From contig SGBD01000003.1 of assembly GCA_004195035.1 (NCBI GenBank), positions 133,981 through 165,980 on the forward strand: a DNA stretch of 32,000 bases, written 5' to 3'. A program made the translations under genes and the position numbers. The stretch is from Candidatus Acidulodesulfobacterium ferriphilum. GTDB lineage: Bacteria; SZUA-79; Acidulodesulfobacterales; Acidulodesulfobacteraceae. The stretch's first letter is position 1; each line of letters begins with the position of its first letter. The notes below the pieces were generated by a model. That model was not told the origin of the DNA. It saw only the letters and a list, made by a program, of their open reading frames with translations, and made no database searches. Of the stretch, positions 1 through 27,109 are shown piece after piece.

Positions 1-134
1 CAAATATATGTGATTTCTTTGAAAGCCTAAAATTTAAGTATTCGGAATTGGACGGATTATATGATTTATCGGAAGATGTTGAGATAAGCATTGATAGACT
101 ATTAGCCGCAATGGAAGAAGAAAAGGGGCAATAA
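1..134 (+). CDS. 3' end of an unidentified gene truncated by the window edge
   Basis: Frame 3 is open from the window edge (...NICDFFESLKFKYSELDGLYDLSEDVEISIDRLLAAMEEEKGQ*). Its TAA (132-134) overlaps the next ATG (134-136) as TAATG, a typical translational-coupling junction. No recognisable motif. Confidence 0.4.
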   Translation, partial: NICDFFESLKFKYSELDGLYDLSEDVEISIDRLLAAMEEEKGQ

Positions 135-844
135 TGGGCGCACATAAAAGGGTTGATTTTAGCGAAAGGGATAAACAATTATTATATCTTTTATATAAAC
201 ATAGGTATTGTGATTTTACGGCTTTAACTATGTTGAATATTAAATATGATACTTTATATAGACGATTAAAGAAATTAATTAAATCCGATTATGTTAAAAA
301 ATTAAATTCTGAAAATATTAAAATCGAAATTTACAGCTTAACGCAAAAAGGCGAAAACTGGCTTACTCAAAACATCGAGCAGGAATTTAATAAACCGATT
401 TTAAGTAAAATTAAAACATCGTCTTTATATAACTTTAATCATCACTTATTAATCGCAAGAATAGGCGCATTATTGGCAAGCAGAAATATCGATTATGAAA
501 TAGATTTAACCTGTAAAAAAGCATATCCAGAACTTAAAATAATACCGGATATAATCATTAAAAAATACGGCGGATTAATCTGCTTTGAAATCGAACTTGA
601 ATACAAAACGGCGGAAAAATACGCAAAGAAATTGTCGCAATTACAGAACAGCGCGGATATAAAAAAGTTAATATATTTGACACAGGGGAAGCCTGATAAA
701 TTACAAAATAAAATATCGATTATAGACCGATATAAGAAGGGTAAAAGTATAGATGAAAGATTTATTGATAACGAAACGAAAAACAAAATAATATTTGTAG
801 AATTAAATAATTTTATTCAGAATATAGACGAATTTATATCCTAA
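134..844 (+). CDS. Replication-relaxation-family-like protein (wHTH plus PD-(D/E)xK-like core), mobile-element associated
   Basis: 236-aa ORF. The N-terminus has a winged-helix-like segment (ERDKQLLYLLYKHRY...TLYRRLKKLIKSDYVKKL). Further on is a nuclease-fold-like core (HHLLIARI ... IIPDIIIKKYGGLICFEIELEYKT), as I recall for Replic_Relax proteins. It sits beside xis/int. Confidence 0.55.
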   Translation: MGAHKRVDFSERDKQLLYLLYKHRYCDFTALTMLNIKYDTLYRRLKKLIKSDYVKKLNSENIKIEIYSLTQKGENWLTQNIEQEFNKPILSKIKTSSLYNFNHHLLIARIGALLASRNIDYEIDLTCKKAYPELKIIPDIIIKKYGGLICFEIELEYKTAEKYAKKLSQLQNSADIKKLIYLTQGKPDKLQNKISIIDRYKKGKSIDERFIDNETKNKIIFVELNNFIQNIDEFIS

Positions 845-907
845 AAAAGAACTAAAAAAATCACACACAAGAACGGACGGAGAAAATAAAAAGAAAATGA
901 AAGAAAC

Positions 908-957
908 GAAAAAGATAAAAAATAATTCAAGTTTTGGCGGAAAAAAGATAAAAAATA
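908..957 (+). repeat. Two near-identical A-rich direct repeats (G-A5/6-GAT-A6-TA)
   Basis: gaaaaagataaaaaata at 908-924 and gaaaaaagataaaaaata at 940-957, with starts 32 bp apart, in the non-coding stretch 845-1231. Confidence 0.5.
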
Positions 958-1012
958 CCGTTCCGTTTTTCGTATGTTGCAGGTCGGAAGGGTATTTTTA
1001 GGGCAAAAGGCA

Positions 1013-1106
1013 CTGTTCCCCTACTCCCACTTAGTAGGTGGTCGGGGAGTTTAAAAAGCCAAACTTCCCGACCACCTACTAAAAGCGTGTGGGAGTAGGG
1101 GAACAG
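1013..1106. repeat. 94-nt inverted repeat forming a 40-bp hairpin (candidate oriT, single-strand origin or structured RNA)
   Basis: Outer stem 1013-1030 (ctgttcccctactcccac) pairs perfectly with 1089-1106. Inner stem 1031-1052 pairs with 1061-1082 over 22 bp with a single G:T(U). The loop is 1053-1060 (aaaaagcc) and there is a 6-nt one-sided bulge at 1083-1088. Confidence 0.9.
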
Positions 1107-1180
1107 CAAAGGCAAAAGCAGAAGCGAAAGACAAAAGCAAAAACCAAAGCAAAAGACAAAGGCAAACTGCGAAAGCAAAA
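1107..1180 (+). repeat. Degenerate purine-rich hexamer array (GCRAAR-like, about 11 units)
   Basis: caaagg caaaag cagaag cgaaag acaaaag caaaaac caaag caaaag acaaagg caaact gcgaaag caaaa, immediately 3' of the hairpin. This array explains the spurious low-complexity minus-strand ORF 927-1178. Confidence 0.7.
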
Positions 1181-1231
1181 TTGAAAAAAAATTATTAATT
1201 ATAAAAATAACTTCTACACGGAAAAAAAATT

Positions 1232-1423
1232 ATGCTGATAAAAATTAAAGAGGTTGCCGGAATGTTAGCGATGAACCAAACAAGCATTTACAAACTTGTT
1301 TATCGTAAAGCTATTCCTTATGTCAAAATAGGCGGAGCTTTAAGGTTCGATAAGGATAAAATTATCGCTTGGATTAATCAGAATAGCTGTGATATGATTA
1401 ATCCGAAAAGTAAGCGTTTGTAA
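1232..1423 (+). CDS. xis: Excisionase / AlpA-type HTH DNA-binding protein
   Basis: 63 aa with a MerR-like excisionase HTH pattern (IKEVAGMLAMNQTSIYKLVYRKAIPYVKIGGALRFDKDKIIAWI). It lies directly upstream of and co-oriented with the integrase. Confidence 0.75.
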   Translation: MLIKIKEVAGMLAMNQTSIYKLVYRKAIPYVKIGGALRFDKDKIIAWINQNSCDMINPKSKRL

Positions 1424-1446
1424 ATGTCGTTTAAGGGGGTGAATCA

Positions 1447-2532
1447 ATGGGCATTTACAAAAAAGCTAACAGCAATAATTTTATGATGAGCAAAACGGTA
1501 AACGGTTTGACTTATTTTAAATCCAGCGGCACAAATTTAAAAATGGAAGCAAGGGCAACTTTCGACCGCTGGGTCATCGAGCTTAAAGAACAAATCCGGA
1601 CCGGCGAGCCGGTAAAGCAGAAACAAGAACCTATAATAAATAATTCTACTTTTTCGGAGCTTGCCGATAAGTATTTGGAATATACCGCCGGACGCTTAAA
1701 AAGCCATAAAGGGCTTTTCACTTTTTACAAAAAACTAAACGGCTATTTCGGAAATAAAACCTTAACGACTATTTCAATAGAGGATGTCGAAAATATGCAG
1801 TCCGATATTTTAAAACAGGGGCTTTCAAACGCATATGCAAACAGGTTATTAATTCATTTTAAAAGAGCGTTAAAAAAAGCGGCCGATTGGGAAATAATAT
1901 CCGACGATGTTCTTAATAAGTTTAAAAAGGTTAAACTCGTAAAAGGGGAAACAAAGCGGTTAAGGTATCTGTCCGAAGATGAGGCGCAAAGGTTTATCGG
2001 TAATTGCGATATTAATTTAAAATCTATCGTAATAACTGCTTTAAATACCGGTATGCGTAAATCGGAAATTCTGCATTTAGCTTGGGACAGGGTAGATTTA
2101 AAGAACCGGATAATCCTTTTAGATAAAACAAAGAACGGCGAAAGGCGAGAAATACCGATAAATCAAACACTTTACGATGTCCTGCTGCAGCTGCCGAGGC
2201 ATATAAGCGGCTATGTATTTGCAAATCCTAAAACCGGCAAGCCTTACAATAACGTTAAAAAGAGCTTTGGATCGGCGTTAAGAAAAAGCCATATTTTTGA
2301 TTTTAGGTTTCACGATTTAAGGCATACTTTTGCAAGCTGGCTTGTTATGGGCGGGGTAGATTTAACGACCGTTAAGGAACTGTTAGGGCATAAGGATGTC
2401 AGGATGACTTTAAGGTATTCTCATTTAGCGGCAAGTCATATATCTAATGCCGTTAAGGTTTTAGAAAAAAACTTTACCGTTTCTTTACCGCAGGAACAAA
2501 AGCAAAAATCCGAATATCTTGAAAGTGTTTAA
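1447..2532 (+). CDS. int: Tyrosine-type site-specific integrase
   Basis: 361 aa with a GGGGGTG RBS 6 nt upstream. Catalytic-domain hallmarks are present: LNTGMRKSEIL (Arg), HDLRHTFASWL (His-x-x-Arg), LLGHKDVRMTLRYSHL (His ... Tyr). Confidence 0.95.
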   Translation: MGIYKKANSNNFMMSKTVNGLTYFKSSGTNLKMEARATFDRWVIELKEQIRTGEPVKQKQEPIINNSTFSELADKYLEYTAGRLKSHKGLFTFYKKLNGYFGNKTLTTISIEDVENMQSDILKQGLSNAYANRLLIHFKRALKKAADWEIISDDVLNKFKKVKLVKGETKRLRYLSEDEAQRFIGNCDINLKSIVITALNTGMRKSEILHLAWDRVDLKNRIILLDKTKNGERREIPINQTLYDVLLQLPRHISGYVFANPKTGKPYNNVKKSFGSALRKSHIFDFRFHDLRHTFASWLVMGGVDLTTVKELLGHKDVRMTLRYSHLAASHISNAVKVLEKNFTVSLPQEQKQKSEYLESV

Positions 2533-2537
2533 ATATC

Positions 2538-2613
2538 TGGTGGGCTGTCCCGGGATCGAACCGGGGACCTACTGATTAAGAGTCAGTTGCTCTACCGATT
2601 GAGCTAACAGCCC
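2538..2613 (-). tRNA. tRNA-Lys (anticodon CUU)
   Basis: The reverse complement reads GGGCTGT TA GCTC AATCGGTA GAGC A ACTGA CTCTTAA TCAGT AGGTC CCCGG TTCGATC CCGGG ACAGCCC A CCA. This is a full cloverleaf with a 7-bp acceptor stem, a TTCGATC T-loop, anticodon loop CT-CTT-AA and an encoded CCA. Confidence 0.93.
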
Positions 2614-5319: not shown

Positions 5320-5856
5320 TTATCTCCAGACTTTTATCGTATAAAGGTCTTCGCCTGTTTCTTCCGTTAAAAACTTATACCCGGCGTCTTTTAACCTTGG
5401 GTATAAATGTATGGGTTTTCTTTCGTGGGTTATATATAAGGCTTCGCCCTCTTTAATATTTTCTAAGGTTTCAAATATCTTAAGAAGGGGTTGCGGCGGT
5501 TCAAGCCCTCTTACATCTATTTCCACGCCTTTTTTATGGGCTAAATTCTTAAGGTCTTCGTCGGTGAAGTTTTTTTCATCTGCTTCTTCCGATACCTTAA
5601 TGGGTTTCTTGCCTGTTTTATCTCTAAAAAATATTATCTGAAATCCTTCCTGTGTTTTATTCGTGATGTGTTCAAAACCCTTATTTTTTAAAACGGAGTA
5701 AAGCGGAAACGGTTCAAAGCTGTTTGTTAAATCCAAAGCCTCATCCTCTTTTAATCCGTTAATCGCCTTCATAATTCTTTGAAACGGATCTGCGCCGTTT
5801 TTAATATCTTCCCTGACATCTAACTTAATTCGTTTTAAATTATTTATGGTTTCCAT
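5320..5856 (-). CDS. Tandem DUF2249-domain protein
   Basis: 178 aa with a GGAGG RBS. Two repeats have the DUF2249 pattern: LDVREDIKNGADPFQRIMKAINGLKEDEALDLTNSFEPFPLYSVLKNKGFEH and IDVRGLEPPQPLLKIFETLENIKEGEALYITHERKPIHLYPRLKDAGYKF. Confidence 0.8.
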   Translation of the reverse strand: METINNLKRIKLDVREDIKNGADPFQRIMKAINGLKEDEALDLTNSFEPFPLYSVLKNKGFEHITNKTQEGFQIIFFRDKTGKKPIKVSEEADEKNFTDEDLKNLAHKKGVEIDVRGLEPPQPLLKIFETLENIKEGEALYITHERKPIHLYPRLKDAGYKFLTEETGEDLYTIKVWR

Positions 5857-5876
5857 AATTATAACCTCCTACGTTT

Positions 5877-6371
5877 TTATTTGATTGTTCTCATCTTTTC
5901 CATTATGCCTTCTTTTTCGTCTGCGGTTAAGTGCATATCCGCCATATTGAATAATATGTGGTCTTCCTTGTCGATATGTTCCGATAAAAGGGAAGCAAAT
6001 GAACCGCCGACGGATACGACGGTTTTATAGTTGCCGCCGGCTTGATAGTCTTTAATGCTTTTTTTAAAATCTTCCGAAAGCTCTCTGCTGTGCTTGTGTT
6101 CAATAAGCATAACATGTATAGGGCCTGTTTCTAAACCTATATAATTTCCGAGAACGGGGAATAAAGCCTCTTCCTCTTTTTTAAAATGAATTTCTAAATC
6201 CTTATCGATAAATGCGGTTATTTCATTAAGTTGATTTATAAGGTTTTTTCTTAAACTATCCGAGGAGCTTGCCCCAATCTTTTTTAAATACCCTTCAAGA
6301 TTATTTAAAACTCCTCTGACGATTTCGTGGTCGCTTCTTAAAGACATAATTGGGTCGAGATTTGTATCCAT
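5877..6371 (-). CDS. Hemerythrin-like (HHE cation-binding) di-iron protein
   Basis: 164 aa with an AAGGAG RBS. It has spaced His/Glu ligand motifs: LRSDHEIV, LEIHFKKEEEALFP, MLIEHKHSREL, LLSEHIDKEDHILF. It lies 20 nt upstream of the DUF2249 gene on the same strand. Confidence 0.85.
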   Translation of the reverse strand: MDTNLDPIMSLRSDHEIVRGVLNNLEGYLKKIGASSSDSLRKNLINQLNEITAFIDKDLEIHFKKEEEALFPVLGNYIGLETGPIHVMLIEHKHSRELSEDFKKSIKDYQAGGNYKTVVSVGGSFASLLSEHIDKEDHILFNMADMHLTADEKEGIMEKMRTIK

Positions 6372-7673: not shown

Positions 7674-8669
7674 ATGAGATTTTTTGCACGAAAACTATTA
7701 TTAACCATGGCTTTGGGTTTTCTGTTCGTACTTATAGGTTCGGTTAATGTATTTGCGGCGACCTACGGCGTATTTACTCAGGTCGCCGTCAATGTTCCCG
7801 GAGATATTCCATCTGTTGTCCATAATATCAAATCTGCCTTGAATCATGCGGGTTGGAAGGTTGTGGGAACAACTAATATATCTCTTCCAAAAAGCGATAC
7901 TCATAAAGCAATCGTCATAGCCGCAACGAATAACGTCTATAATAAATATATGGTCGATAACGGCAACAATCCGGCGGCCGCTTTCGGACTTCCATTAAGA
8001 GTAGAGGTCTATACCACGCCGGCCCAGGGTATTGTCGTCAGTATGTTAAATTTACCTGCTTTAGCAAGAACATTTTCCGGAAATTCTTATGTAGATTATG
8101 CAATTAAAGTAAATAATATGTTAAAGCATGCTATAAGGGGCGCGGTAGGCGGCACCCCTTCAAATCTGCAATACGGTCCGATGAGAAGCGGGAGGTTTCC
8201 CGGCGGTATCGGGGGCGGTTCTTTTCCCGGCAGTATTGACCAGATATCGAACTATTCCGGCAGTACTAATTCTAATTTAAGGGGCGTCGCACAATTAATA
8301 GAAGCGGGGATTGGCCGTAATAACGGCAGATGGCGGTTAGTTTACGAGATAAGCAAACCTTCGATAGGTTTTATAGAATTTGGCGTTACAAGGAATTCGA
8401 CGGAAAGACACTCTATCGAAATCGACAGCGGCGCAAGGGCAACCTCCTCGTATAAAACCCCGGGGATAGACCATGGCGCGTCTTTTCCGATAGAAATACT
8501 TGTTTATAGGGACGGAAATTACACCGATGTGTCGATACTTGGCGAGATGTGGAGAATGAAATATTATTTTGCCGATGCGGGAATGTTAGCATTTATGACA
8601 CATATGGGAATGCCGGGTTCCATACAGGGTTCTTTAAAACAGATGATTTTATACGGGTTGGCATACTAA
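7674..8669 (+). CDS. Secreted protein with two DUF302-like halves joined by a Gly-rich linker
   Basis: 331 aa with a GGAGGGAG RBS and a signal peptide (LLLTMALGFLFVLIGSVNVFA/AT). The first half has a DUF302-like pattern (...AAFGLPLRVEVYTTPAQGIVVSMLNLP). The second half ends similarly (ASFPIEILVYRDGNYTDVSIL). The linker is GRFPGGIGGGSFPGS. Confidence 0.65.
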   Translation: MRFFARKLLLTMALGFLFVLIGSVNVFAATYGVFTQVAVNVPGDIPSVVHNIKSALNHAGWKVVGTTNISLPKSDTHKAIVIAATNNVYNKYMVDNGNNPAAAFGLPLRVEVYTTPAQGIVVSMLNLPALARTFSGNSYVDYAIKVNNMLKHAIRGAVGGTPSNLQYGPMRSGRFPGGIGGGSFPGSIDQISNYSGSTNSNLRGVAQLIEAGIGRNNGRWRLVYEISKPSIGFIEFGVTRNSTERHSIEIDSGARATSSYKTPGIDHGASFPIEILVYRDGNYTDVSILGEMWRMKYYFADAGMLAFMTHMGMPGSIQGSLKQMILYGLAY

Positions 8670-8679
8670 CCCCCACCCT

Positions 8680-8708
8680 GTCCCCTCTCCCATAAAGGGG
8701 GAGGGGAC
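8680..8708. terminator. GC-rich hairpin between convergent genes (possible bidirectional terminator)
   Basis: gtcccctctccc ataaa gggggaggggac forms a 12-bp stem with one G:T. A second 7-bp hairpin, ggatgat gctt atcatcc (8716-8733), overlaps the nrdJ stop. Neither is followed by a clear T-tract on either strand. Confidence 0.45.
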
Positions 8709-8727
8709 TAAGGAAGGATGATGCTTA

Positions 8728-11166
8728 TCATCCGCAATCGGAGTATCCGCAATCAAGGCATACCGTGCAGCCTTCCGCATGTTTTAAATTAGAACCGCCG
8801 CACATCGGACAGGCGCCCCTTCCTTGAACTTTATATGTATCTATATGCCCGTTTTTCTGATTTTTATGAGATATTTTCAGACTTCCATTTTCCAACAGGC
8901 TTTTTTCAAGCGCTTTTCCGATAGCATCCGCGCATGAGTATATTATGTTATCGCCGAAACCGTGCGGTATATTACATCTAATGCCTTTTAGCTGGTTTAT
9001 TATTTCTTCGGTGTCTATTCCCGACCTCAAAGCTAAGCTTACCATTCTGCCGGTTGATTCGGTTTGAGACTGCGCACAGCCGCCGGATTTGCCGATAGAA
9101 TTAAATATTTCAAAAGGCCTTCCGTTTTCGTCGTAATTTATCGTTACATATAAAGGTCCGCAGCCGGTTATTGTTTTAATCGTAATTCCATGTATAATAT
9201 CAGGCCTCTTTCTCGGCTCGATTCTTTTTTCGCCGCCGCTTTTTTTTTCAACGGCGGGTTCGATGCCGATAGGTTCGGTTACCGGAGAACCGCATACCGG
9301 ACACTTATATTTGCCGTTTGCGGAAGGACCTGTCGTTAAGACCTGTTCCCTCGAGCCGTCTCTGTAAACCGTAATACCTTTCAAATTAAGATTATACGCA
9401 AGCAGATATACCTCTTTAATATCTTCTTTTTTTGCAGAGTTTGGAAAATTTACGGTTTTACTGACGGCATTGTCCGTATATTTTTGAAATGCCGCTTGAA
9501 GCATAACATGCCATTTTGGCGTAATATCGTGCGAGGTTATAAATATGCGGCTTAAATATTCATAGATTTCGGGGCTTAATAAATTAGGCGGCAAATCTTT
9601 ATAAGAGTGCCCAAGATTACCGTTCTTAACGACAAAATCTATAAGTTCATTTGAATAAACGCCTAAACTTTCCAGTATATTTTTAAAATTTTTATCGGTT
9701 TCTATTAAAGTTTGATTGTCTAAGACATGCCTTTCATAAGCTAATGCAAATAACGGTTCTATTCCGCTGGATGCTCCGGCAATTATGCTTATTGTGCCGG
9801 TCGGGGCAATGGTTGTGGTTGTTCCGTTTCTCATAGCCTTATAGCCTTTTTCTTTCCAGACGGAGCCTTCAAAATTAGGAAAACTGCCCCTGACCGTCCC
9901 AAGTTCTTCCGATTTTAATTTTGATTCCTTATCTATAAAACCCATTATTTTTTCGGCTACTTTAAGCGCCAGGTCGCTATTATACGGTATTTTTAATTTT
10001 ATAAGCGTATCGGCATATCCCATAATCCCCAGCCCTATTTTTCTATTGGAAAGCGTCATCTGTTTTATTTTTTCGATGGGATAATGATTTTTGTCTATCA
10101 CATTGTCTAAGAAATGAACTGCCGTATGCACGGTTTTTTTAAGCGACTCAAAGTCAATAATATCAAGGTAATAAGGCAGGATAGCATCAGGCTTTTCATT
10201 AAGCCTTTTTAATGCCTCTTTATAATCAAATTTGCCTTTTTTGCTTTCATATCCCTTTATGAATTTTCCAAGATTAATGGAACCCAAATTGCAGGATTCG
10301 TAGGCAACTAAAGGCTGTTCCCCGCACGGATTAGTCGCCTCGATTTTGCCGGCTTTAGGGATAGGGTTAAGTTTGTTTATTCTGTCTATAAAAATAATTC
10401 CCGGTTCCCCGCTAGACCATGCCATTTCCACAATTAAATCGAAAACTTCTTTTGCATTGAGATGTTTAACGATTTCATTGTTTCTCGGGTTTATCAACGG
10501 GTAATTTTCGTTTTTAATAACGCGGCTCATAAAATCTTCCGTGATCGCAACGGATATATTAAAATTGTTAAGTTTTGAGGTATCTTTTTTAGAAGAGATA
10601 AAGTCTAATATATCAGGGTGGTCTATTCTTAAAATACCCATATTGGCTCCCCTTCTTGTTCCGCCTTGCTTTATCGCCTCCGTTGCGCTGTTAAATACCT
10701 GCATAAATGAAACAGGGCCGCTTGACACGCCCTTTGTGGAATGAACGGTATCATTTTTGGGTCTTAAATTAGAAAAAGAAAAGCCTGTTCCGCCGCCGCT
10801 CTGGTGTATTAGCGCTGTATTTTTTATTGTCTCGAAAATCGATTCCATAGAATCTTCGATTGGAAGAACAAAACAGGCGGAAAGCTGCTGCAGCGGTCTT
10901 CCCGCATTCATTAAGGTAGGGGAATTTGGTAAAAAGCGCAGGTTTGCCATCTCTTCGAAAAATATCCCTGCTATTGTTTCAGCCTCTTCTTTGGTTTTGC
11001 CGTAATTTAAATCGGCTTCGGAGATGTTCTTTGCCACCCTTTCAAACATTCCGGATATTGTTTCGATAATTTCACCCTTTTCGTTTTTAGCCAAATATCT
11101 CTTCTTTAAAACCGTTATTCCATTTTCGGAAAAGCTTTTTATAAGCGGGTCATTTTTATCTTTCAT
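8728..11166 (-). CDS. nrdJ: Class II (adenosylcobalamin-dependent) ribonucleotide reductase with a C-terminal TSCPD-type domain and zinc ribbon
   Basis: 812 aa with a GGGGAGG RBS. RNR core motifs are present: LSACFVLPIEDSM, ATNPCGEQPL, YESCNLGSINL. The C-terminal domain reads TGCGPLYVTINYDENGRPFEIF...GGCAQSQTE...QLKGIRC...YSCADAIGKAL, with terminal CPMCGG...CTVCLDCG. Confidence 0.95.
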   Translation of the reverse strand: MKDKNDPLIKSFSENGITVLKKRYLAKNEKGEIIETISGMFERVAKNISEADLNYGKTKEEAETIAGIFFEEMANLRFLPNSPTLMNAGRPLQQLSACFVLPIEDSMESIFETIKNTALIHQSGGGTGFSFSNLRPKNDTVHSTKGVSSGPVSFMQVFNSATEAIKQGGTRRGANMGILRIDHPDILDFISSKKDTSKLNNFNISVAITEDFMSRVIKNENYPLINPRNNEIVKHLNAKEVFDLIVEMAWSSGEPGIIFIDRINKLNPIPKAGKIEATNPCGEQPLVAYESCNLGSINLGKFIKGYESKKGKFDYKEALKRLNEKPDAILPYYLDIIDFESLKKTVHTAVHFLDNVIDKNHYPIEKIKQMTLSNRKIGLGIMGYADTLIKLKIPYNSDLALKVAEKIMGFIDKESKLKSEELGTVRGSFPNFEGSVWKEKGYKAMRNGTTTTIAPTGTISIIAGASSGIEPLFALAYERHVLDNQTLIETDKNFKNILESLGVYSNELIDFVVKNGNLGHSYKDLPPNLLSPEIYEYLSRIFITSHDITPKWHVMLQAAFQKYTDNAVSKTVNFPNSAKKEDIKEVYLLAYNLNLKGITVYRDGSREQVLTTGPSANGKYKCPVCGSPVTEPIGIEPAVEKKSGGEKRIEPRKRPDIIHGITIKTITGCGPLYVTINYDENGRPFEIFNSIGKSGGCAQSQTESTGRMVSLALRSGIDTEEIINQLKGIRCNIPHGFGDNIIYSCADAIGKALEKSLLENGSLKISHKNQKNGHIDTYKVQGRGACPMCGGSNLKHAEGCTVCLDCGYSDCG

Positions 11167-11224
11167 CTATACCTCCCCTTATATTAATTTTAATGAATAT
11201 TTAATTTTAAAAATTTTTACAATT

Positions 11225-11268
11225 AACAATATGTAGATATTTTTTTTATTTCTATACAATATATTGTA
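11225..11268. promoter_or_regulatory. Two NrdR-box-like palindromes upstream of nrdJ
   Basis: Box 2, tacaatatattgta (11255-11268), is a perfect 14-bp palindrome and matches 12/14 of the core of the acaCwAtATaTwGtgt consensus as I recall it. Box 1, aacaatatgtagat (11225-11238), matches about 10/14. The centres are 30 bp apart, about three helical turns, and lie 59-103 nt upstream of the start. Confidence 0.4.
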
Positions 11269-11425
11269 ATTTATCTTTTGTCAATATCTTTTTTTAATTA
11301 CCGTTTTTAATTGTAAATCATTAAAAAAAGTTTTATAATTTTAAAATATGAACAAGAAATAATAAATAAAATAATAAATAATAAGAAATACATAAAAATT
11401 GCAAGGGGGATATTAAAATAAAATA

Positions 11426-12130
11426 ATGCATAGTTTAAATTACCTGCATAGCATGAATATTTTAACCCACATTCTAAGCACAAACATCGTTGTAAAATTA
11501 GTCCTTTTAATTCTATTTTTTTTCTCTTTGGCGTCATGGGCTATTATTTTTTATAAATTAAATTATCTTAATAAAGCAAAAAAGGAAGATAAAGAGTTTC
11601 TCGATTTATTCTGGGAATCTAAAAGATTGGATTATGTTTATACGGCCACCAAAAATTTTAATTATAGTCCTGTAGCCTCTATGTTTAATGCTACATACAA
11701 AGAACTTGTGGACATTAAAAAAAAATCGGAAGAAAAGGATAAGCTTTTTGGTAAAGAAAATAATGGAGAGAATCAAGCATATATAGAAAGGGCTTTAAAA
11801 AAATCACAGCTCTCGTCTATTGCAAAACTTGAGATTTCCCTTCCATTTTTAGCGACGGTCGGCTCCACTGCCCCATTTATAGGCTTATTTGGAACGGTTT
11901 GGGGAATAATGACATCATTCGAAAGTATAGAAAAAGCAGGGACAGCCGGCTTGGCGATTGTAGCTCCGGGTATTGCTGATTCGCTTATTGCGACGGCGGC
12001 GGGTCTTTTTGCGGCGATCCCTGCCGTTATTGCATATAACTATTATTCAAATAAGGTAAGAGTGATAGCTAACGAGACTATCGATTTTGCATATGAATTT
12101 ATGACAATAATCGAAAGGCAGATTCTATAA
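11426..12130 (+). CDS. tolQ: Tol-Pal system protein TolQ (MotA/TolQ/ExbB proton channel)
   Basis: 234 aa. MNILTHILSTNIVVKLVLLILFFFSLASWAIIFYK parallels the E. coli TolQ N-terminus, and the C-terminal channel motif is LATVGSTAPFIGLFGTVWGIM...GIADSLIATAAGL. The start could instead be ATG 11453. Confidence 0.9.
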   Translation: MHSLNYLHSMNILTHILSTNIVVKLVLLILFFFSLASWAIIFYKLNYLNKAKKEDKEFLDLFWESKRLDYVYTATKNFNYSPVASMFNATYKELVDIKKKSEEKDKLFGKENNGENQAYIERALKKSQLSSIAKLEISLPFLATVGSTAPFIGLFGTVWGIMTSFESIEKAGTAGLAIVAPGIADSLIATAAGLFAAIPAVIAYNYYSNKVRVIANETIDFAYEFMTIIERQIL

Positions 12131-12139
12131 TAATTAATT

Positions 12140-12583
12140 ATGTTTATATCTTTTGGCGATAGAGACGATAAAAAAAGTTTTTCTTCCGGCTATAAGCTTA
12201 TGTCCGATATAAACATTACGCCGTTTGTCGATGTAATGCTGGTTTTGCTCGTTATCTTTATGGTAACCGCCCCGATATTGGTTCACGGAATTAAGGTTCG
12301 CTTGCCGGCGGCTTCGGCGCGGGCATTAAAAGCCCCGGAAAAAACGATAGTCGTTTCGGTTACTTCCGGCAGGTATGTTTATATAAACAATTTGAGGGTA
12401 AGCCCCGCCCTTTTGACCCAAAAATTAAGGATTTTATATAAAAACAGGAGGGACAAGCAGATATTTCTTAAAGCAAGTTCAGTCCTGCCCTACGGCTATG
12501 TAATAAGGATAATGGCTGCAATAAAAGACGCCGGCATAACAAAAATCGGCATGGTAACGGCAAATCTCAGCCATGTTAAGTAA
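12140..12583 (+). CDS. tolR: Tol-Pal system protein TolR (ExbD/TolR)
   Basis: 147 aa with the signature SDINITPFVDVMLVLLVIFMVTAP, including the conserved TM Asp. An alternative start is ATG 12200. Confidence 0.9.
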   Translation: MFISFGDRDDKKSFSSGYKLMSDINITPFVDVMLVLLVIFMVTAPILVHGIKVRLPAASARALKAPEKTIVVSVTSGRYVYINNLRVSPALLTQKLRILYKNRRDKQIFLKASSVLPYGYVIRIMAAIKDAGITKIGMVTANLSHVK

Positions 12584-12634
12584 TTAAGCAAACGCTTTTA
12601 GAAAATTATCGCATTTATTTTTTAGCAAGTTAAA

Positions 12635-13405
12635 ATGTTTAACGAAAACCGAAGCGGAATTGGAAAATATTATATATATTCGATTTTATTTCATGCGGCT
12701 TTAATCGGTCTAATAATATATTTAGGGATAAGGTTTAAACCGGAAATTGAGTCTATCGGCTCAAAGGTAGTTGTCAGCGTTGTGAGCAGCGTTCCTGGAC
12801 CGCCTGCTTCTGTTAAAGCGATATTAAAACCGCCTGTGCCAAAGATTAAAAGACAAATTATAAGCAAGCCCGCTCAGGCAAAAAAACCTGTGCAATTACC
12901 CGTTACTAAAAAGCCCTCATCTATGGTTTACCCGAAAAAGGTTCTGCCGAAGTCCGTTCCCGTTAAAAGATATGTTAAGAGGCAAGCCCCTGTTCCTGCG
13001 GTTAATTCCAGTGTCTATACAAATTTACATAATATGATAAGCCTTAATAACGCATATAGCAAGGTTCAGGAATCTTTGATCAGGGGAAATATCCATAACT
13101 TTCAGGGTTATGTCAATAAAATAGTGTCGATTATTACATCTCATTTCGATATTTCTCTTTCTAAATATTTGCACTACAAGTCCGTGGTTGCCTTCCAAAT
13201 ATCCGCTTCGGGAAGGATTTACGGCGTCAGGCTTGCCAAATCTTCAGGCAACGGCTATTTCGATTCTCAATCGATCGAAGCGGTAAAATTATCAAGCCCG
13301 CTGCCTTCGCCGCCCAAAGGGTTTATGAGCTTTATGAACTCTAAGAACGCAGGCGAGGGGGCTTTAATAGCCTTTAATCCGAGAGAGATTCTAAAAAATA
13401 AGTAA
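12635..13405 (+). CDS. tolA: TolA-like protein (N-terminal TM anchor, Pro/Lys-rich linker, TonB_C-like domain)
   Basis: 256 aa with TM YYIYSILFHAALIGLIIYLGI, linker PPVPKIKRQIISKPAQAKKPVQLPVTKKP, and a C-terminal VAFQISASGRIYGVRLAKSSGNGYFDSQSIEAVKLSSPLPSPP. It occupies the tolA position between tolR and tolB. Confidence 0.7.
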   Translation: MFNENRSGIGKYYIYSILFHAALIGLIIYLGIRFKPEIESIGSKVVVSVVSSVPGPPASVKAILKPPVPKIKRQIISKPAQAKKPVQLPVTKKPSSMVYPKKVLPKSVPVKRYVKRQAPVPAVNSSVYTNLHNMISLNNAYSKVQESLIRGNIHNFQGYVNKIVSIITSHFDISLSKYLHYKSVVAFQISASGRIYGVRLAKSSGNGYFDSQSIEAVKLSSPLPSPPKGFMSFMNSKNAGEGALIAFNPREILKNK

Positions 13406-19597: not shown

Positions 19598-20524
19598 ATG
19601 ATTTTTGATAAAGTTGAAGCCGGGGGTAAACCCGCAGGTTCTTACAGGGGTTTTGGCAAATTTGCAAAGTCATCCATATTTAAAAACATTATCAAAGAAA
19701 AGGCTTTGAGTCTTAATATCGCTTTTGTCTGCTTTTACGGATCAAGAAATTATAACCTTGAAACAGACAAAAGCGATTATGATTTTTTTATTGTCTATTA
19801 TCCCGCCTTTGATAATTTCTACGCCAATAGATTTGAAAGATTTTCGGTTATAGAAAAGGAGTACGACTATTTTATAACCCCGATCCATGAATACTTTAAC
19901 CATGCAATGAAGGGTAATATAAAGTTTATAGAACCTATCATATGCGGGACGGTTTTTGAGATAAAGAATTTTAAAGCCGTAAAGGTCAGAGATGACGGCA
20001 AAGCTCCCGGACGATTCCGTCCCCGTGAAGTTCCTTCGGGACTTTCCGGATTATTAGAAAAAGTAAGAAAATTTATTTTGATTAATTATAAAAAAAATTT
20101 TAATGCTATGATGGGAATAGTAAATAACAAAAAACTAAATATCGTTAAAGGATTGTACACATCAAGCACATTAAAATACAAAGAGACTCACGGGTATGAC
20201 ATTAAAGAGGCAATAAATTCTTTAAGGATACTTTGCTTACTTGAAAATTATATTAAAAGCGGACAGTTCTCTTTCAGGGTTAAAGGAAACCCTGTTTATA
20301 AAGAGTTTGAAGATTATATGCTTAAAATAAACGAGGGGATTATCTCGAAAGAGATTTATTTAGAAATAGTAGGTAAAAAAGTAAACGATGTTTTAAAATT
20401 AAAAAATAACTTAGATATATTATATGAAGAGCAAAAACAGGCTGTCATAGAAGCCGAAGAAGAAATTAAAGATTGCGTTAAGAAACTTTGCAGAGATTAT
20501 ATCTGTTTTGCAAAACAGATATAA
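19598..20524 (+). CDS. Pol-beta-superfamily nucleotidyltransferase (COG3541 / RlaP-like)
   Basis: 308 aa. FVCFYGSRNYNLETDKSDYDFFIVYYP matches the GS-x9-13-D-x-D minimal NTase signature as found in predicted nucleotidyltransferases of the RlaP type. The start is 4 nt after the TPR gene stop. Confidence 0.6.
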   Translation: MIFDKVEAGGKPAGSYRGFGKFAKSSIFKNIIKEKALSLNIAFVCFYGSRNYNLETDKSDYDFFIVYYPAFDNFYANRFERFSVIEKEYDYFITPIHEYFNHAMKGNIKFIEPIICGTVFEIKNFKAVKVRDDGKAPGRFRPREVPSGLSGLLEKVRKFILINYKKNFNAMMGIVNNKKLNIVKGLYTSSTLKYKETHGYDIKEAINSLRILCLLENYIKSGQFSFRVKGNPVYKEFEDYMLKINEGIISKEIYLEIVGKKVNDVLKLKNNLDILYEEQKQAVIEAEEEIKDCVKKLCRDYICFAKQI

Positions 20525-23704: not shown

Positions 23705-23775
23705 TTTCCTAAAGATTTCAAGTAATTTTAATTTGAATTTTTAAAAAAATAAAAAATGGGGAGTAAGGAGGTCTT

Positions 23776-24759
23776 ATGTTCAAAAATCTTTCTTTAAAAA
23801 CTAAATTTACCCTGATTATGGCGATTGTCGGATTCGCGGCAATTCTTGCCAGCCTGATCTGGACTTTAAGTTTATTTCATTATTTCGGCAGGAAAGTTCT
23901 TATCCATGAAGCACACATAATATTAAATTTTGAAAATTCCACCAGATATTATGTTTCTCAAAAATTAAGGCCGGAGGCGATAAATAGAAATAATAATTTT
24001 AATAACATACCCTATGATGCCGACGATATAGGCAGAAATGCAAAACTGCAAAAAATAATAAGCGAAAATAACGATTTTTATATACACGCTTATTCGGGGA
24101 CATCCGTTGCCATGCATGTAGGAAAATTAATGAGGGAATTCGTGCCCCCCTTCATTTATTCGGAACCCGCGTTGAGTCCGTTGAACTTAAGAGATAAAGC
24201 AAATCCGTTCGAGATTAGCGTTATAGGTAAATTTAAATCTAATCCGTCTTTAAAATCAGTCAGCGGCTTTCATGTTTTTAACGGGAAATCATATTTTTAT
24301 TTAATGGAGCCGGTTATCGTCAAGAAAAGCTGCATGGTTTGCCACGGAAATCCGTCAAACCCTTCGCCTATAACCGCGGCGGTAGTAAAAAGATACGGGG
24401 ATACGCACGGCTGGCACTGGAAGGTTGGAACGGCGGCCGGAGTCTTAAGCATCTTAGTTCCGACTAAACACAGGGCAAATATTGCATTGCACAATGCTAT
24501 CATAATAACGACGGCTTTCCTTATCCTATTTATTTTAGCTTTTATAATCGCAATCTATTTTATTAATAAGGCTATCATTAAGCCGATACACGAGATGACC
24601 AAATTGGCGGAGGATGTTTCGGTAGGCAAATCCAACGAAGATTTTAAAGTTAAAGGAAACGACGAAATAGGCGCCCTTGCTAAATCATTTAACAGGCTTA
24701 AAAAGAGCTATTTAAAAGCCGTTCAGTTATTGGCGGATAGAAATAAAGAAAAAAAATAA
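23776..24759 (+). CDS. Membrane sensor-like protein: TM, DUF3365 (c-type heme CxxCH), TM, HAMP; no output domain
   Basis: 327 aa with an AGGAGG RBS. TM1 is FTLIMAIVGFAAILASLIW. The periplasmic domain reads ...SEPALSPLNLRDKANPFE...FYLMEPVIVKKSCMVCHGNP...GDTHGWHWKVGTAAGVLSILVP, with the CMVCH codons at 24331-24345. TM2 is IIITTAFLILFILAFIIAIYFI. The HAMP is IIKPIHEMTKLAEDVSVGKSNEDFKVKGNDEIGALAKSFNRLKKSY, followed by about 20 aa and a stop. Confidence 0.8.
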   Translation: MFKNLSLKTKFTLIMAIVGFAAILASLIWTLSLFHYFGRKVLIHEAHIILNFENSTRYYVSQKLRPEAINRNNNFNNIPYDADDIGRNAKLQKIISENNDFYIHAYSGTSVAMHVGKLMREFVPPFIYSEPALSPLNLRDKANPFEISVIGKFKSNPSLKSVSGFHVFNGKSYFYLMEPVIVKKSCMVCHGNPSNPSPITAAVVKRYGDTHGWHWKVGTAAGVLSILVPTKHRANIALHNAIIITTAFLILFILAFIIAIYFINKAIIKPIHEMTKLAEDVSVGKSNEDFKVKGNDEIGALAKSFNRLKKSYLKAVQLLADRNKEKK

Positions 24760-24783
24760 AAAAACAGGGTTAGGGGAGGTCTT

Positions 24784-25692
24784 ATGTTTAAAAATCTTTC
24801 TTTGAAAAAGAAATTTACCGTAATTATGTTAATTGTCGGGTTCGCTGCAAACTTAACCGTTGCCGTGGGCGCTTTTTATTATATTCAGCAATTTAAGAAA
24901 AACGAGCTGATGCATGAAGCAAAAATGGTTCTTTTTGCGGAAAAGGCGGCAAGAGATTACGATTCCGGCAGTTTAAGACCCGCGGTTATGAAAGCAACCG
25001 ACAAATTTGTTATTCAGGCCGAATCAGCCACATTTTTAGCCCTCGGCGTTGCAAAATTGATTAAAAAGTTTCTGCCTCATTATACATATTCTGAGCCGAC
25101 GCTTAACCCTTTAAATTTAAAAAATAAGGCAAATTCATTTCAGGAAAAAATCATAGACAGGTTTAAATCCAGCCCTTTTTTAAAATCGGTAAGCGGTTAT
25201 CACACATTTAACGGTTTATCTTACTTTTATGTGATGAAGCCCGTTGTGGCAAAACAGGGATGCATGGTTTGCCACGGCAATCCCGAAAATAATTCTCCTA
25301 TAACCCAGGCCATTGTTAAAAAATACGGAGATACGCACGGCTGGCACTGGAAGGTTGGGACGGTCATAGGGGCTCTGAGTGTTTGGGTTCCTACAAAATA
25401 CATAGACCAGGCCGCTGTTAACGATTCTATTATAATAGGCGTCGCAATCTTTGTCCTGCCGTTTTTGGCATTCTTAATAGCGCTTTTATTTATAGACAAA
25501 GTTATTATAAATCCGATACACGATATGGCGAAATTGGCGGAGGATGTTTCGGTCGGCAAGTCAAACGAGGATTTTAAAGCCAGAGGAAACGACGAAATAG
25601 GCGCTCTTGCCAAATCATTTAACAGGCTTAAAAAGAGCTATTTAAAAGCCGTTCAGTTATTGGTGGAGAGAAATAAAGACAAAGATAAATAA
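24784..25692 (+). CDS. Paralogous TM, DUF3365 (c-heme), TM, HAMP protein; no output domain
   Basis: 302 aa with a GGGGAGG RBS and the same architecture: the CMVCH codons at 25261-25275, GDTHGWHWKVGTVIGALSVWVP, TM2 IIIGVAIFVLPFLAFLIALLFI, and HAMP IINPIHDMAKLAEDVSVGKSNEDFKARGNDEIGALAKSFNRLKKSY. It begins 24 nt after the first copy. Confidence 0.8.
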   Translation: MFKNLSLKKKFTVIMLIVGFAANLTVAVGAFYYIQQFKKNELMHEAKMVLFAEKAARDYDSGSLRPAVMKATDKFVIQAESATFLALGVAKLIKKFLPHYTYSEPTLNPLNLKNKANSFQEKIIDRFKSSPFLKSVSGYHTFNGLSYFYVMKPVVAKQGCMVCHGNPENNSPITQAIVKKYGDTHGWHWKVGTVIGALSVWVPTKYIDQAAVNDSIIIGVAIFVLPFLAFLIALLFIDKVIINPIHDMAKLAEDVSVGKSNEDFKARGNDEIGALAKSFNRLKKSYLKAVQLLVERNKDKDK

Positions 25693-25774
25693 AAATATTT
25701 TTGTTATCCTTGAAAAAATATATTTTCGAGATATACTTAAAGCAGATGCGGTAAAAAAGAAATAATAAGGCGTA

Positions 25775-27109
25775 ATGCTTAAGGTCCTGTTTTATCTAAC
25801 GGGATGCGGGGTTTACAGGCAAATGGAAAATAAAAATAGCTTGAAGGTTACTCTTGTGTTTAATCGGGATTTGTTAAATAAAGCCGAAATAAAAAAGATA
25901 ATCTATGTTAAAATTCCCGACGAGAAAAAGAAAAATAATTTAATTAAAAAATTAGAAGTAAAGGCCTTAGATGAAAATATCCGGTTTCAAAAAAGAAAGC
26001 TTCCGCAGTCTTTTAATCCCGTATTTAAAGGGCATATCCTTTTTTCAGAAAAAATAGAATTAAGCGATAAAAAACTTATCGATTTTGCAAATATATTTTT
26101 TGAGAGATTGGAAGAAAATTTTGGAATAAATGTCATAAATTATAGTTTGATAGATGCCAAAAAAGGCGCTCTGAAAGAAAATTACAAATTAAAATTGTTT
26201 GATTTCGAGATATTTAATTATAATTTTATTGAGCATAGGGCTATAAAAAAGGGGTTAACCGTCGCAGGCGGCGCAAAAGAAATTAACGAACTTGCGGAAA
26301 CCATTTTTGTTAAACCGGAATTAAAAATTAGAGTCAGAGAGAAAAAACCTGCAAAGCCCGCCCTGAAAAAGGCGTTTAAGATAAAAGAGGAAAAGGCGCT
26401 TAAAACACCGGGGGAAAAAGCCAAACCTAAAAAAATCGTTAATAAAAAAGCCATCCGCGGTAAAGCAGTAAAAGAAAATGAGCCTGCCGAGGCTTTCAGG
26501 GCATTTGAAGCCCCCGAAGAACAGGCAGCCGGAGCGGTAGAAGTTAGCGAAGCCAATACTTCCGCCGGTACCCGCGAACAGGTAAGCTTAATCTCTTTGA
26601 ATTGGAGCTTATTAAGCCCGTCAGAAAGCCTTCCTGTGCTTGAGAATGGCGAGCCTGAGGAGATAAGGCAAAATAGCTGGGTAAGGATTTATTTTCAAAA
26701 ACCGAGCGTCAGGCAGGTTGTTTGGAGATTAAGGGATAAACCGGGAACAAATTCTGCGAGACCTATTCTAAGAGTTTATGTCGATGATAAAATGCTTTGG
26801 TATGAACTGTTAGATAATCAATTTGGAAGCAGGTACATTATTTTTCCCGATGATTATGAATTAGCTAAGACATGGGTGGAGATCGGATATATATTAGAAA
26901 AAGGGGAATTTATATTTATAGCGAGAAGTCCTATCTGGCCGCCTGCCTGCTTATTTAAAAGGCTGCCGAAAATAAATTCCAAAAAAAGAATTCCTAAAGG
27001 GGTCGCCTTAATAGGCGCAACGGAAAGTATCCCCGGAGGCAGGCATCTTCCGGTTAATTTATCCGGCGGTTCGGGGGCAGGCTTTTTTGTTTCGGGCGCA
27101 GGAAAATAA
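25775..27109 (+). CDS. Hypothetical protein: unknown N-terminal domain, Lys/Ala/Pro-rich linker, DUF4912-like C-terminal domain
   Basis: 444 aa (possibly starting at ATG 25823, MENKNS...). The C-terminal region PILRVYVDDKMLWYELLDNQFGSRYIIFPDDYELAKTWVEIGYILEKGEFIFIARSPIWPP follows the DUF4912 pattern as I recall it (...lRvyd...W.y.v.p....y.vElG......f..lARSn.v..P). That family is commonly found next to GH57 branching enzymes. The linker is KKPAKPALKKAFKIKEEKALKTPGEKAKPKKIVNKK. Confidence 0.55.
   Translation: MLKVLFYLTGCGVYRQMENKNSLKVTLVFNRDLLNKAEIKKIIYVKIPDEKKKNNLIKKLEVKALDENIRFQKRKLPQSFNPVFKGHILFSEKIELSDKKLIDFANIFFERLEENFGINVINYSLIDAKKGALKENYKLKLFDFEIFNYNFIEHRAIKKGLTVAGGAKEINELAETIFVKPELKIRVREKKPAKPALKKAFKIKEEKALKTPGEKAKPKKIVNKKAIRGKAVKENEPAEAFRAFEAPEEQAAGAVEVSEANTSAGTREQVSLISLNWSLLSPSESLPVLENGEPEEIRQNSWVRIYFQKPSVRQVVWRLRDKPGTNSARPILRVYVDDKMLWYELLDNQFGSRYIIFPDDYELAKTWVEIGYILEKGEFIFIARSPIWPPACLFKRLPKINSKKRIPKGVALIGATESIPGGRHLPVNLSGGSGAGFFVSGAGK

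Follow-up and report, generated by a model that had tools for sequence, protein, structure and literature searches.

Two tandem heme-c receptors that end in a HAMP domain, and a candidate Roadblock/LC7-DUF8082 partner, in Candidatus Acidulodesulfobacterium ferriphilum

A stretch of 32,000 nucleotides (nt) from Candidatus Acidulodesulfobacterium ferriphilum (assembly GCA_004195035.1, contig SGBD01000003.1, positions 133,981 to 165,980 of the forward strand; hereafter the window) contains two consecutive genes at positions 23776 to 25692. They are here called CHH1 and CHH2, after the Cache_heme-HAMP (CHH) receptors. Each gene encodes a membrane protein with a periplasmic heme-c sensor domain that stops shortly after a cytoplasmic HAMP domain. 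The two open reading frames (ORFs), of 327 and 302 amino acid residues (aa), and their parts, including the transmembrane segments (TM1 and TM2), are listed below.

23766..23771, + strand: ribosome-binding site of CHH1, AGGAGG, read from the sequence
23776..24759, + strand: CHH1, 327 aa, from the ORF list (PF11845, E 3e-27; PF00672, E 5e-10)
23812..23868, + strand: CHH1 TM1, residues 13-31 (Kyte-Doolittle hydropathy, 19-residue window, score 2.45)
23977..24054, + strand: insertion of 26 residues in the CHH1 sensor domain, missing from CHH2 (gap in the BLASTP alignment)
24331..24345, + strand: CHH1 heme-c attachment motif CMVCH, C186-H190, from the sequence
24499..24555, + strand: CHH1 TM2, residues 242-260 (hydropathy score 3.15)
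24559..24699, + strand: CHH1 terminal HAMP, residues 262-308 (Pfam HAMP; terminal-HAMP signature present)
24775..24779, + strand: ribosome-binding site of CHH2, GGAGG, read from the sequence
24784..25692, + strand: CHH2, 302 aa, from the ORF list (PF11845, E 1e-28; PF00672, E 4e-8)
24820..24876, + strand: CHH2 TM1, residues 13-31 (hydropathy score 2.27; long N-terminal helix in the structure model)
25261..25275, + strand: CHH2 heme-c attachment motif CMVCH, C160-H164, from the sequence
25429..25485, + strand: CHH2 TM2, residues 216-234 (hydropathy score 3.05)
25504..25629, + strand: CHH2 terminal HAMP, residues 241-282, with helix AS2 reaching the C-terminus (Pfam HAMP)
24682..24733 = 25612..25663, + strand: run of 52 nt identical in both genes, over HAMP AS2 (longest identical match)

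The coordinates and the layout (TM1, DUF3365-type domain with CMVCH, TM2, HAMP, stop) had been given in a preliminary description made from the letters alone, and were confirmed by the ORFs, Pfam, and hydropathy. The profile check proposed there was run, and both families scored above their cutoffs. PF11845 (Tll0287-like, formerly DUF3365) gave 96 bits for CHH1 and 101 bits for CHH2 (gathering cutoff 24.1), and PF00672 (HAMP) gave 40 and 33.8 bits (cutoff 25). As described earlier, each protein has a single CxxCH motif, CMVCH, and its two Cys residues are the sole cysteines in CHH1 and in CHH2. C160, C163, and H164 of CHH2 are invariant across 48 diverse aligned CHH proteins. Both proteins stop 19–20 residues past the Pfam HAMP match, in line with the ~20 residues first noted, and the spacers (24 nt between CHH1 and CHH2, 82 nt between CHH2 and the downstream gene) were confirmed from the sequence to leave no room for a decayed output domain. 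No enzymatic or methyl-accepting chemotaxis protein (MCP) output domain was found in either protein; the NCBIfam models for histidine kinases, MCPs, and phosphatases touch only TM2-HAMP, far below their cutoffs. The overall identity of CHH1 and CHH2 is 56%.

The AlphaFold2 (AF2) model of CHH2, with 48 relatives in the alignment, was confident along the whole chain (predicted local distance difference test, 93). It begins with a long N-terminal helix and an alpha/beta sensor, after which a connector of 14 residues joins the TM2-AS1 helix to AS2 (helices 205–256 and 271–301); AS2 runs to the C-terminus, and the tail after the HAMP is its plain continuation. In a Foldseek search, this model matched Tll0287 (5B82; E 7e-8, TM score 0.72), a WalK model for overall topology, and, weakly, the heme sensor 3B42/GSU0935. 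Tll0287 (5B82) was also found by a CHH profile searched against PDB sequences (E 1.8e-9), although a single-protein phmmer search of PDB had missed it, and the best PDB match of this profile was the HAMP of Af1503 (E 2.5e-13). Each protein is a two-pass membrane protein with a periplasmic Tll0287/Cache_heme fold that carries one CxxCH, and its cytoplasmic part is a HAMP only.

This receptor class is newly known, first described in two 2026 preprints, in Pseudomonadota. The earlier view that such a signalling mode was uncharacterized for DUF3365 proteins does not hold, because the CHH architecture is described in both (bioRxiv 10.64898/2026.02.01.703092 and 10.64898/2026.05.25.727664). In the first preprint, DUF3365/Tll0287 was redefined as a heme-c Cache domain (sCache_heme). 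About half of the sCache_heme proteins were found to be stand-alone and redox-like, the HAMP-fused members were placed in a cluster that senses nitric oxide (NO), and a Pseudomonas azotoformans protein with two TM helices and a HAMP only was reported to bind NO, not O2 (bioRxiv 10.64898/2026.02.01.703092). In the second, the receptors were named CHH, and a PknB-like Ser/Thr kinase was found to be encoded alongside them in most cases; the HAMP dimer is bound by two C-terminal helical bundles of the kinase, with IGPLARFLVRKSLN and IGPIARIVVSRALR as their conserved helices, at an affinity in the nanomolar range, and phosphorylation of HAMP Thr256 is enhanced by NO (bioRxiv 10.64898/2026.05.25.727664). 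TIR, cyclase, Roadblock, and DUF8082 are mentioned in neither preprint, and the term DUF8082 was not found in the literature searched.

The window proteins share with the P. azotoformans CHH the order TM1, periplasmic sCache_heme with CxxCH, TM2, and terminal HAMP without an output, as well as the terminal-HAMP signature and the presence of a DUF8082-bearing protein in the genome. They differ in that they are only ~25–30% identical to Pseudomonadota CHHs, come from an acid-mine, Ca. Acidulodesulfobacterales-like lineage, and are encoded by a tandemly duplicated gene with homogenized HAMPs. Moreover, their locus has no kinase or PP2C nearby, and the sole DUF8082 protein found here is an unlinked Roadblock/LC7 fusion. 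Tll0287 of Thermosynechococcus elongatus (5B82) has the same periplasmic domain family, fold, and CxxCH heme-c site, but is soluble, stands alone, and has Cys/His as axial ligands, whereas the window proteins are membrane-anchored. Because CHH1 and CHH2 lack any Cys beyond CxxCH and carry two TM segments as well as a HAMP, they fall outside the stand-alone redox type of sCache_heme ("Cluster 1"). The chemoreceptors GSU0582 and GSU0935 of Geobacter sulfurreducens (PDB 3B42 and 3B47) also have a periplasmic c-heme sensor between two TM helices, followed by a HAMP, but continue into an MCP signalling domain, whereas CHH1 and CHH2 stop.

The two genes resemble each other unevenly. Their HAMP regions are 86% identical at the aa level and 89% at the nt level, with an identity of 0.82–0.93 at synonymous third positions, the higher value being reached over the end of AS2. 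In contrast, the synonymous third-position identity is 0.51 in the sensor domain and 0.23 in TM2. The HAMP-coding 3' ends of CHH1 and CHH2 have thus been homogenized, in a pattern of gene conversion confined to these ends. CHH1 is limited to a group with at least 91% identity (the window and L001 and L026–L028), and CHH1 orthologues of the same length were found in L001, L026–L028, and P0019. L029 (84% identity) and all other subgroups have one CHH gene at this locus, and in a rough neighbor-joining tree CHH1 forms a long branch. The diverged sensors and homogenized HAMPs fit two inputs that feed one docking surface.

The survey for proteins that stop after DUF3365-HAMP, also proposed in the preliminary description, was run as an exhaustive search of 1.8 billion representatives, which yielded 2537 matches at E ≤ 0.001. 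All 19 close full-length homologues (55–94% identity) have 297–327 aa and the same two Pfam domains. Among the 136 fetched close and distant homologues in which our own HAMP model found a match, 99 stop within 35 residues of this domain. The layout is shared by ~100 representatives of distant clusters, and 78 of the 79 relatives from metagenomes likewise stop just after the HAMP. These comparisons indicate that the output-less architecture is selected and not decayed. The same had been argued from the two paralogues ending at the same point; the selection stands, but that argument does not, because the 3' ends were homogenized and are not independent. It is the conservation of length and C-terminus across lineages that carries the conclusion.

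HAMP domains are usually described as a relay inside one polypeptide. Af1503, the prototype HAMP structure, has been an orphan since 2006. This Archaeoglobus fulgidus protein (PDB 2L7H and 4GN0) is the classic receptor without a cytoplasmic output domain (PMC3585426). Like the CHH proteins, it has a C-terminal HAMP with an RxRRSL tail, and the core position A291/S256 is occupied by a small residue in both; it differs in being archaeal, in having no heme-c Cache domain, and in having Ala where CHHs have a near-invariant Ser. Every residue of the terminal-HAMP signature (P, A, VSxG, DEIG, FNR[ML][KR]xS) is present in CHH1 and CHH2; in CHH2, the signature residues are P244, A252, S256, G258, R281, K283, and S285. 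The signature separates short proteins from the long, output-coupled ones: S256 is present in 95/99 short and 2/31 long proteins, R281 in 92/99 and 14/31, a basic residue at position 283 in 77/99 and 1/31, and S285 in 94/99 and 14/31. The HAMPs of CHH1 and CHH2 are thus members of a separate "terminal HAMP" subfamily, to which Af1503 also belongs. Ser256 was rejected as a phosphorylation site: this near-invariant Ser has the core residue A291 as its counterpart in the alignment to Af1503 and is therefore structural.

The candidate docking module for the terminal HAMP was defined from the motifs in the preprint, precomputed Pfam labels, and our own hidden Markov models (HMMs). In locus L010, the CHH is directly followed by a protein with Pkinase and PF26309 (DUF8082) domains, and then by a PG_binding_1 protein and a PP2C, and in L012 (Skermanella aerolata BJYZ01000019.1) a Pkinase-DUF8082 protein directly follows the CHH. 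The C-termini of these two kinases carry the IGPIARILVKRE-type motif twice (e.g., IGPIARILVKRELG), and database fragments with the kinase C-terminus alone are labelled PF26309. From these motif and label matches, we equated the HAMP-binding helical modules of the preprint with PF26309 DUF8082, which would make DUF8082 a HAMP-docking module.

The CHH subfamily nearest to the window clade was aligned, and 80 metagenomic loci were retrieved with this alignment; 79 CHH loci were counted, and the loci were scanned with an HMM built from the kinase DUF8082 modules only. A DUF8082 ORF was present in 49 of the 79 loci, nearly always within ~50 nt of the CHH. The 49 neighbors comprise 33 kinases, 12 TIR_2 fusions, 2 class III cyclases, and 2 others, and Pfam confirmed the TIR domain in 7/7 TIR-DUF8082 neighbors checked. 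Of the 28 loci that extend 1.5 kb or more to each side of the CHH, 23 had an adjacent DUF8082 ORF. The TIR_2 proteins (L056, L072, L081, L089, L091, L098, L101, L102, L106, L108, L121, and L127) carry one or two C-terminal DUF8082 modules, and one of them is SEFIR-like; in these loci, a TIR effector would apparently be docked to a heme-c HAMP receptor. A class III adenylate/guanylate cyclase with two DUF8082 modules directly follows the CHH in L064 (1790–2890), where the cyclase match is above the Pfam cutoff, and in L104 (1264–2346), where it is weak.

The CHH subfamily nearest to the window clade (35% identity) has a small DUF8082 protein encoded immediately upstream in 5/5 loci (L047–L051). 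These proteins of ~176–200 aa are non-kinase and PATAN-like, with one DUF8082 module. In L047 (145–5074), the small PATAN-like and DUF8082 protein and the CHH are followed by a PatA-type REC-PATAN response regulator, CheY, CheW, and CheA (Pfam), and the locus is thus a Che-like operon with a receptor that lacks the signalling domain of an MCP; the sizes of the downstream ORFs in L050 (1827–7605) match those in L047. The subfamilies also differ at connector position G+4, which is Thr (DTPE) in the kinase-linked CHHs examined (P0211 and P0217) and Glu262 in the window clade, whose connector resembles that of the small-adaptor subfamily; the G+4 Thr may correspond to Thr256 of P. azotoformans. 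From these gene neighborhoods, we infer that DUF8082 may be a portable docking module that couples CHH receptors to Ser/Thr kinases, TIR domains, class III cyclases, and small PATAN-like adaptors. This putative modularity is the strongest new element of the analysis and is drawn from related loci, not from the window.

Two of the kinase loci have further features. The CHH-kinase group of L010 is followed by a convergent FHA-GAF-guanylate cyclase gene (8001–13335 for the whole series), and the presence of this FHA reader of the phospho-signal beside CHH and kinase suggests that the pathway may lead on to cyclic nucleotides. In L012 (1–16873), the CHH and the kinase lie within a type VI secretion cluster, in the order TssK, FHA, TssL, TssM, TagF, CHH, kinase, ClpV, LysR, VgrG; at their position, one would expect the PpkA-type kinase of a threonine-phosphorylation pathway. 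The type VI secretion system, FHA, and TagF are not mentioned in the CHH preprint.

In the window and in L001–L003, our own HMMs found no DUF8082 module, and thus no DUF8082 gene adjoins the CHH genes there. A 308-aa ORF at 19598–20524 was considered as a DUF8082 homologue and rejected, as it encodes a nucleotidyltransferase-like protein. Within the order, the only matches of the kinase-derived module HMM among all ORFs of 30 loci were Roadblock-DUF8082 proteins. Their family comprises 69 protein clusters, and all attached source names point to this lineage, the acid-mine-drainage clade Ca. Acidulodesulfobacterium/Acididesulfobacter/SZUA-79. The proteins consist of an N-terminal Roadblock/LC7 fold, a disordered linker, and a C-terminal four-helix module. 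By Foldseek, the N-terminal part matched LAMTOR2 and MglB (E ~3e-6; 117 matches at E ≤ 0.001), a fold shared by the N-terminal 120 residues of P0239, which is 95% identical to the family member P0241. The C-terminal module is DUF8082 by its precomputed Pfam label, and hhalign aligned it with the kinase modules over 57 columns (E 0.0022; pattern GPI...L..I.D..DR..F). Known Roadblock/LC7 members of the MglB/LAMTOR type regulate small GTPases and have no DUF8082 tail, and no GTPase was seen beside the candidate partner gene.

The Roadblock-DUF8082 gene occurs together with the receptors in several assemblies. A CHH2 protein identical to that of the window is encoded on contig DAIDGP010000037.1 of GCA_027307425.1, and P0241 is encoded on contig DAIDGP010000087.1 of the same assembly. 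Family members co-occur with the tandem CHH pair also in GCA_023379305.1 and GCA_021831025.1. In all three assemblies, the gene directly follows a gene of 228/230 aa that is Roadblock-like by eye, and in GCA_023379305.1 and other relatives it belongs to a conserved block of smpB, an ahpC-like gene, cheZ, the 228-aa gene, and the DUF8082 gene. Three relative lineages have the Roadblock-DUF8082 gene 3–5 kb from the CHH, in two arrangements. In L040 and L006-8, the block lies 3–4 kb upstream of the CHH on the same strand (in L006-8, the 269-aa PF26309 protein is encoded 3 kb upstream), and in L032 (Ca. Acidulodesulfobacterium sp. H_13) it lies 3 kb downstream on the opposite strand. In this last locus (L032, 11673–17348), parvulin, rubrerythrin, and Fur-family genes stand between the CHH and the cheZ block and a GGDEF gene follows it, which gives the region an oxidative-stress flavor. 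In L016–L022, L128, L137, and L139, the Roadblock-DUF8082 gene has a tyrosine integrase gene as its immediate downstream neighbor, in many cases with DnaB/TrbL/Rep3 island genes after it, which suggests an integration hotspot in these relatives.

We propose that CHH1 and CHH2 are split receptors that would signal through a Roadblock/LC7-DUF8082 candidate adaptor, probably to motility, and we consider this proposal evenly poised between right and wrong. Signalling in trans, one of the two modes offered in the preliminary description, is supported as the most likely. By analogy with the Pseudomonas member, the heme would bind NO, and a conformational signal would cross the membrane. The HAMP dimer would then serve as a docking platform for a separately encoded protein that binds via DUF8082 helical modules. 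In this organism, the partner would most likely be P0241, the Roadblock/LC7-DUF8082 protein from the gene block after cheZ in close relatives. Roadblock domains dimerize (MglB and LAMTOR). A Roadblock dimer could thus present two DUF8082 modules to the symmetric HAMP dimer, mimicking the two modules in one kinase chain. Because the sensors have diverged and the HAMPs are nearly identical, CHH1 and CHH2 would report two periplasmic inputs, be it NO, a further heme ligand, or the redox state, to one shared adaptor. The output would be control of motility or taxis rather than of glucan metabolism. In favor of this partner, the CHH neighborhoods searched (10 kb around the CHH, in the window and ~30 loci of the order) contain no kinase, TIR, or cyclase gene as an alternative effector.

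Several points weigh against this proposal. In the window lineage, the Roadblock-DUF8082 gene is unlinked to the CHH genes (different contig), and the assignment of both contigs to one genome rests on the binning of a metagenome-assembled genome. Where the gene does lie near a CHH, it is a separate transcription unit with unrelated genes between them, and proximity within one order could be explained by shared synteny. The putative HAMP-contact helix of the adaptor has diverged (LGPISAMLFDEK versus IGPIARILVKRE), and beyond the Pfam label its module resembles the kinase modules only weakly (hhalign probability 13%, HMM E 0.005–0.03). The 5/28 informative metagenomic CHH loci without an adjacent DUF8082 indicate that other modes may exist. 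The two papers on which the NO-sensing model draws are preprints, and NO sensing is reported for a single Pseudomonas protein (bioRxiv 10.64898/2026.02.01.703092). Finally, CHH2 has the clade-specific His residues H140 (25201–25203), H185 (25336–25338), and H188 (25345–25347), of which H140 and H185 are invariant within the order (motif THGWHWK versus xxGFGWK in other CHHs). These residues could supply a distal heme ligand and so change the ligation and the ligand specificity.

The alternative that survives best, although we regard it as unlikely, is an unlinked PknB-like DUF8082 Ser/Thr kinase that would dock to both receptors and phosphorylate their HAMPs in response to NO. This mechanism has been demonstrated for P. 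azotoformans, and the window receptors carry the same terminal-HAMP signature as the kinase-linked CHHs, with Ser260 invariant at the connector start in the window clade; kinases are also the commonest DUF8082 neighbors in the metagenomic loci. However, the neighborhoods searched in this order have no such kinase, Glu replaces the G+4 Thr of the kinase-linked CHHs examined, and a search with the kinase C-terminus, which was word-based and of limited reach, gave no match named for this lineage.

A role in the adjacent glucan cluster (GH57/glycogen synthase), as raised in the preliminary description, is improbable. In such a role, the receptors would gate the cluster, for example via the 444-aa DUF4912-like protein encoded by its first gene. 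The features relevant to this link are as follows.

25710..25737, + strand: predicted promoter-like site TTGAAA-16-TATACT, located in the 82-nt spacer that separates CHH2 from the glucan cluster (consensus scan only)
25775..27109, + strand: downstream 444-aa protein, first gene of the GH57 glucan cluster, a neighbor only (weak DUF4912, Pfam E 0.0018)

Of the DUF4912/GH57 cluster described directly downstream, the GH57 part was confirmed, but the DUF4912 assignment was not, since the match of 19 bits (E 0.0018) is below the 29.4-bit cutoff. The 444-aa protein has a Lys/Glu/Ala-rich low-complexity stretch in its middle, and its relatives are called at 370–426 aa, so that its true start is probably the ATG near 25823. 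Pfam and our own HMMs found no DUF8082 module and no recognizable signalling domain in it. The order CHH, 370–444-aa protein, three GH57 genes, and GT5 glycogen synthase is kept in subgroups A, B, and C, and was retained in L002 and L044 even though the panC-panD-fxsA block upstream is inverted there. Yet the CHH-fxsA adjacency is as conserved as the glucan adjacency, which may therefore be inherited synteny, and the CHHs of subgroup D (75–77% identity, including a cultured-genus representative) and of the P0014 lineage are not beside glucan genes, nor are any glucan genes present at the CHH loci seen outside this order. The 82-nt spacer has no terminator-like site, which would favor a link, but it has the promoter-like site, which would not; the scan for both was by consensus only and is not decisive for co-transcription. 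The proposed link thus stays positional.

Heterodimerization seems equally doubtful. Here, CHH1 would pair with CHH2, or the two would pair with DUF3365-HAMP kinases or MCPs of full length and modulate these instead of having their own partner. The nearly identical HAMPs beside diverged sensors would suit it, and many full-length sCache_heme-HAMP kinases and MCPs exist. As a general mechanism, however, this second mode of the preliminary description fails, because the tandem pair exists only in the group of at least 91% identity and the relatives are single-copy at this locus. In addition, the terminal HAMP differs in its signature from the HAMP of the long proteins, the loci of the order showed no full-length relative, and the consistent neighbor in other lineages is a DUF8082 protein.

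Less credible still is that CHH1 and CHH2 are no sensors but membrane-anchored periplasmic c-type heme proteins for redox reactions or electron transfer, like the stand-alone Tll0287 type. The redox-active acid-mine habitat and the redox-like half of the sCache_heme proteins speak for it. Against it, electron transfer would leave the cytoplasmic HAMP, which is strongly conserved, without a role, the two proteins lack the Cys that serves as distal ligand in the Tll0287 type, and the HAMP-fused members have been assigned to NO sensing. The weakest alternative, that the CHH genes are pseudogenes, truncated remnants of a histidine kinase or MCP gene, is favored by the missing output domain only and is effectively refuted by the length and C-terminus conserved in close relatives (55–94% identity) and in ~100 distant clusters, with strong ribosome-binding sites on both genes, spacers too small for a decayed domain, and an AF2 model of high confidence throughout speaking against it as well.

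Apart from its left edge, the rest of the window contains housekeeping genes, namely tol-pal, tsaD, ksgA, glpK, fxsA, panD, panC, a class II RNR, and the GH57 glucan cluster. No kinase, PP2C, histidine kinase, MCP, GGDEF, or cyclase was found in the 32-kb window, with the incomplete last ORF (~30.7–32 kb) outside the scan; at the position of this ORF, relatives carry a third GH57 gene. An Rfam scan near the CHH genes gave no riboswitch or other RNA, only a tRNA far upstream. At the left edge of the window (134–2613), a tyrosine integrase gene (1447–2532, + strand) abuts tRNA-Lys(CTT) (2538–2613, - strand), with a weak Replic_Relax-like ORF (134–844) upstream, and this edge is probably the border of an integrated mobile element. 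Adjacent genes for a DUF2249/TusA-like protein and a hemerythrin-domain protein (5320–6371, - strand) lie ~18 kb from the CHH genes and could be O2/NO-related.

The role of a terminal HAMP has been unclear since Af1503, and a first answer, a docked Ser/Thr kinase, was given in 2026 for one Pseudomonas protein. The locus described here shows the CHH class in a distant acidophilic lineage without the published kinase beside it. More broadly, and more tentatively than for the adaptor itself, we suggest that the terminal HAMP (socket) and DUF8082 (plug) may form a general two-polypeptide receptor system, in which the plug is fused to kinases, TIR domains, cyclases, PATAN-like proteins, or Roadblock/LC7, and that here two heme-c sensors would converge on a dimeric Roadblock-DUF8082 adaptor. 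If this is true, the CHH receptors are a plug-and-socket family, and the fusion partner of DUF8082 could tell what the output is; sensing of gas or redox state by periplasmic heme c could then act on phosphorylation, TIR/NAD chemistry, cyclic nucleotides, or motility. That Af1503 has remained an orphan might have the same explanation. For this organism, specific pairs of proteins are now named that can be tested, and its Roadblock-DUF8082 protein would be the first non-enzymatic, motility-directed output of the CHH receptor class.

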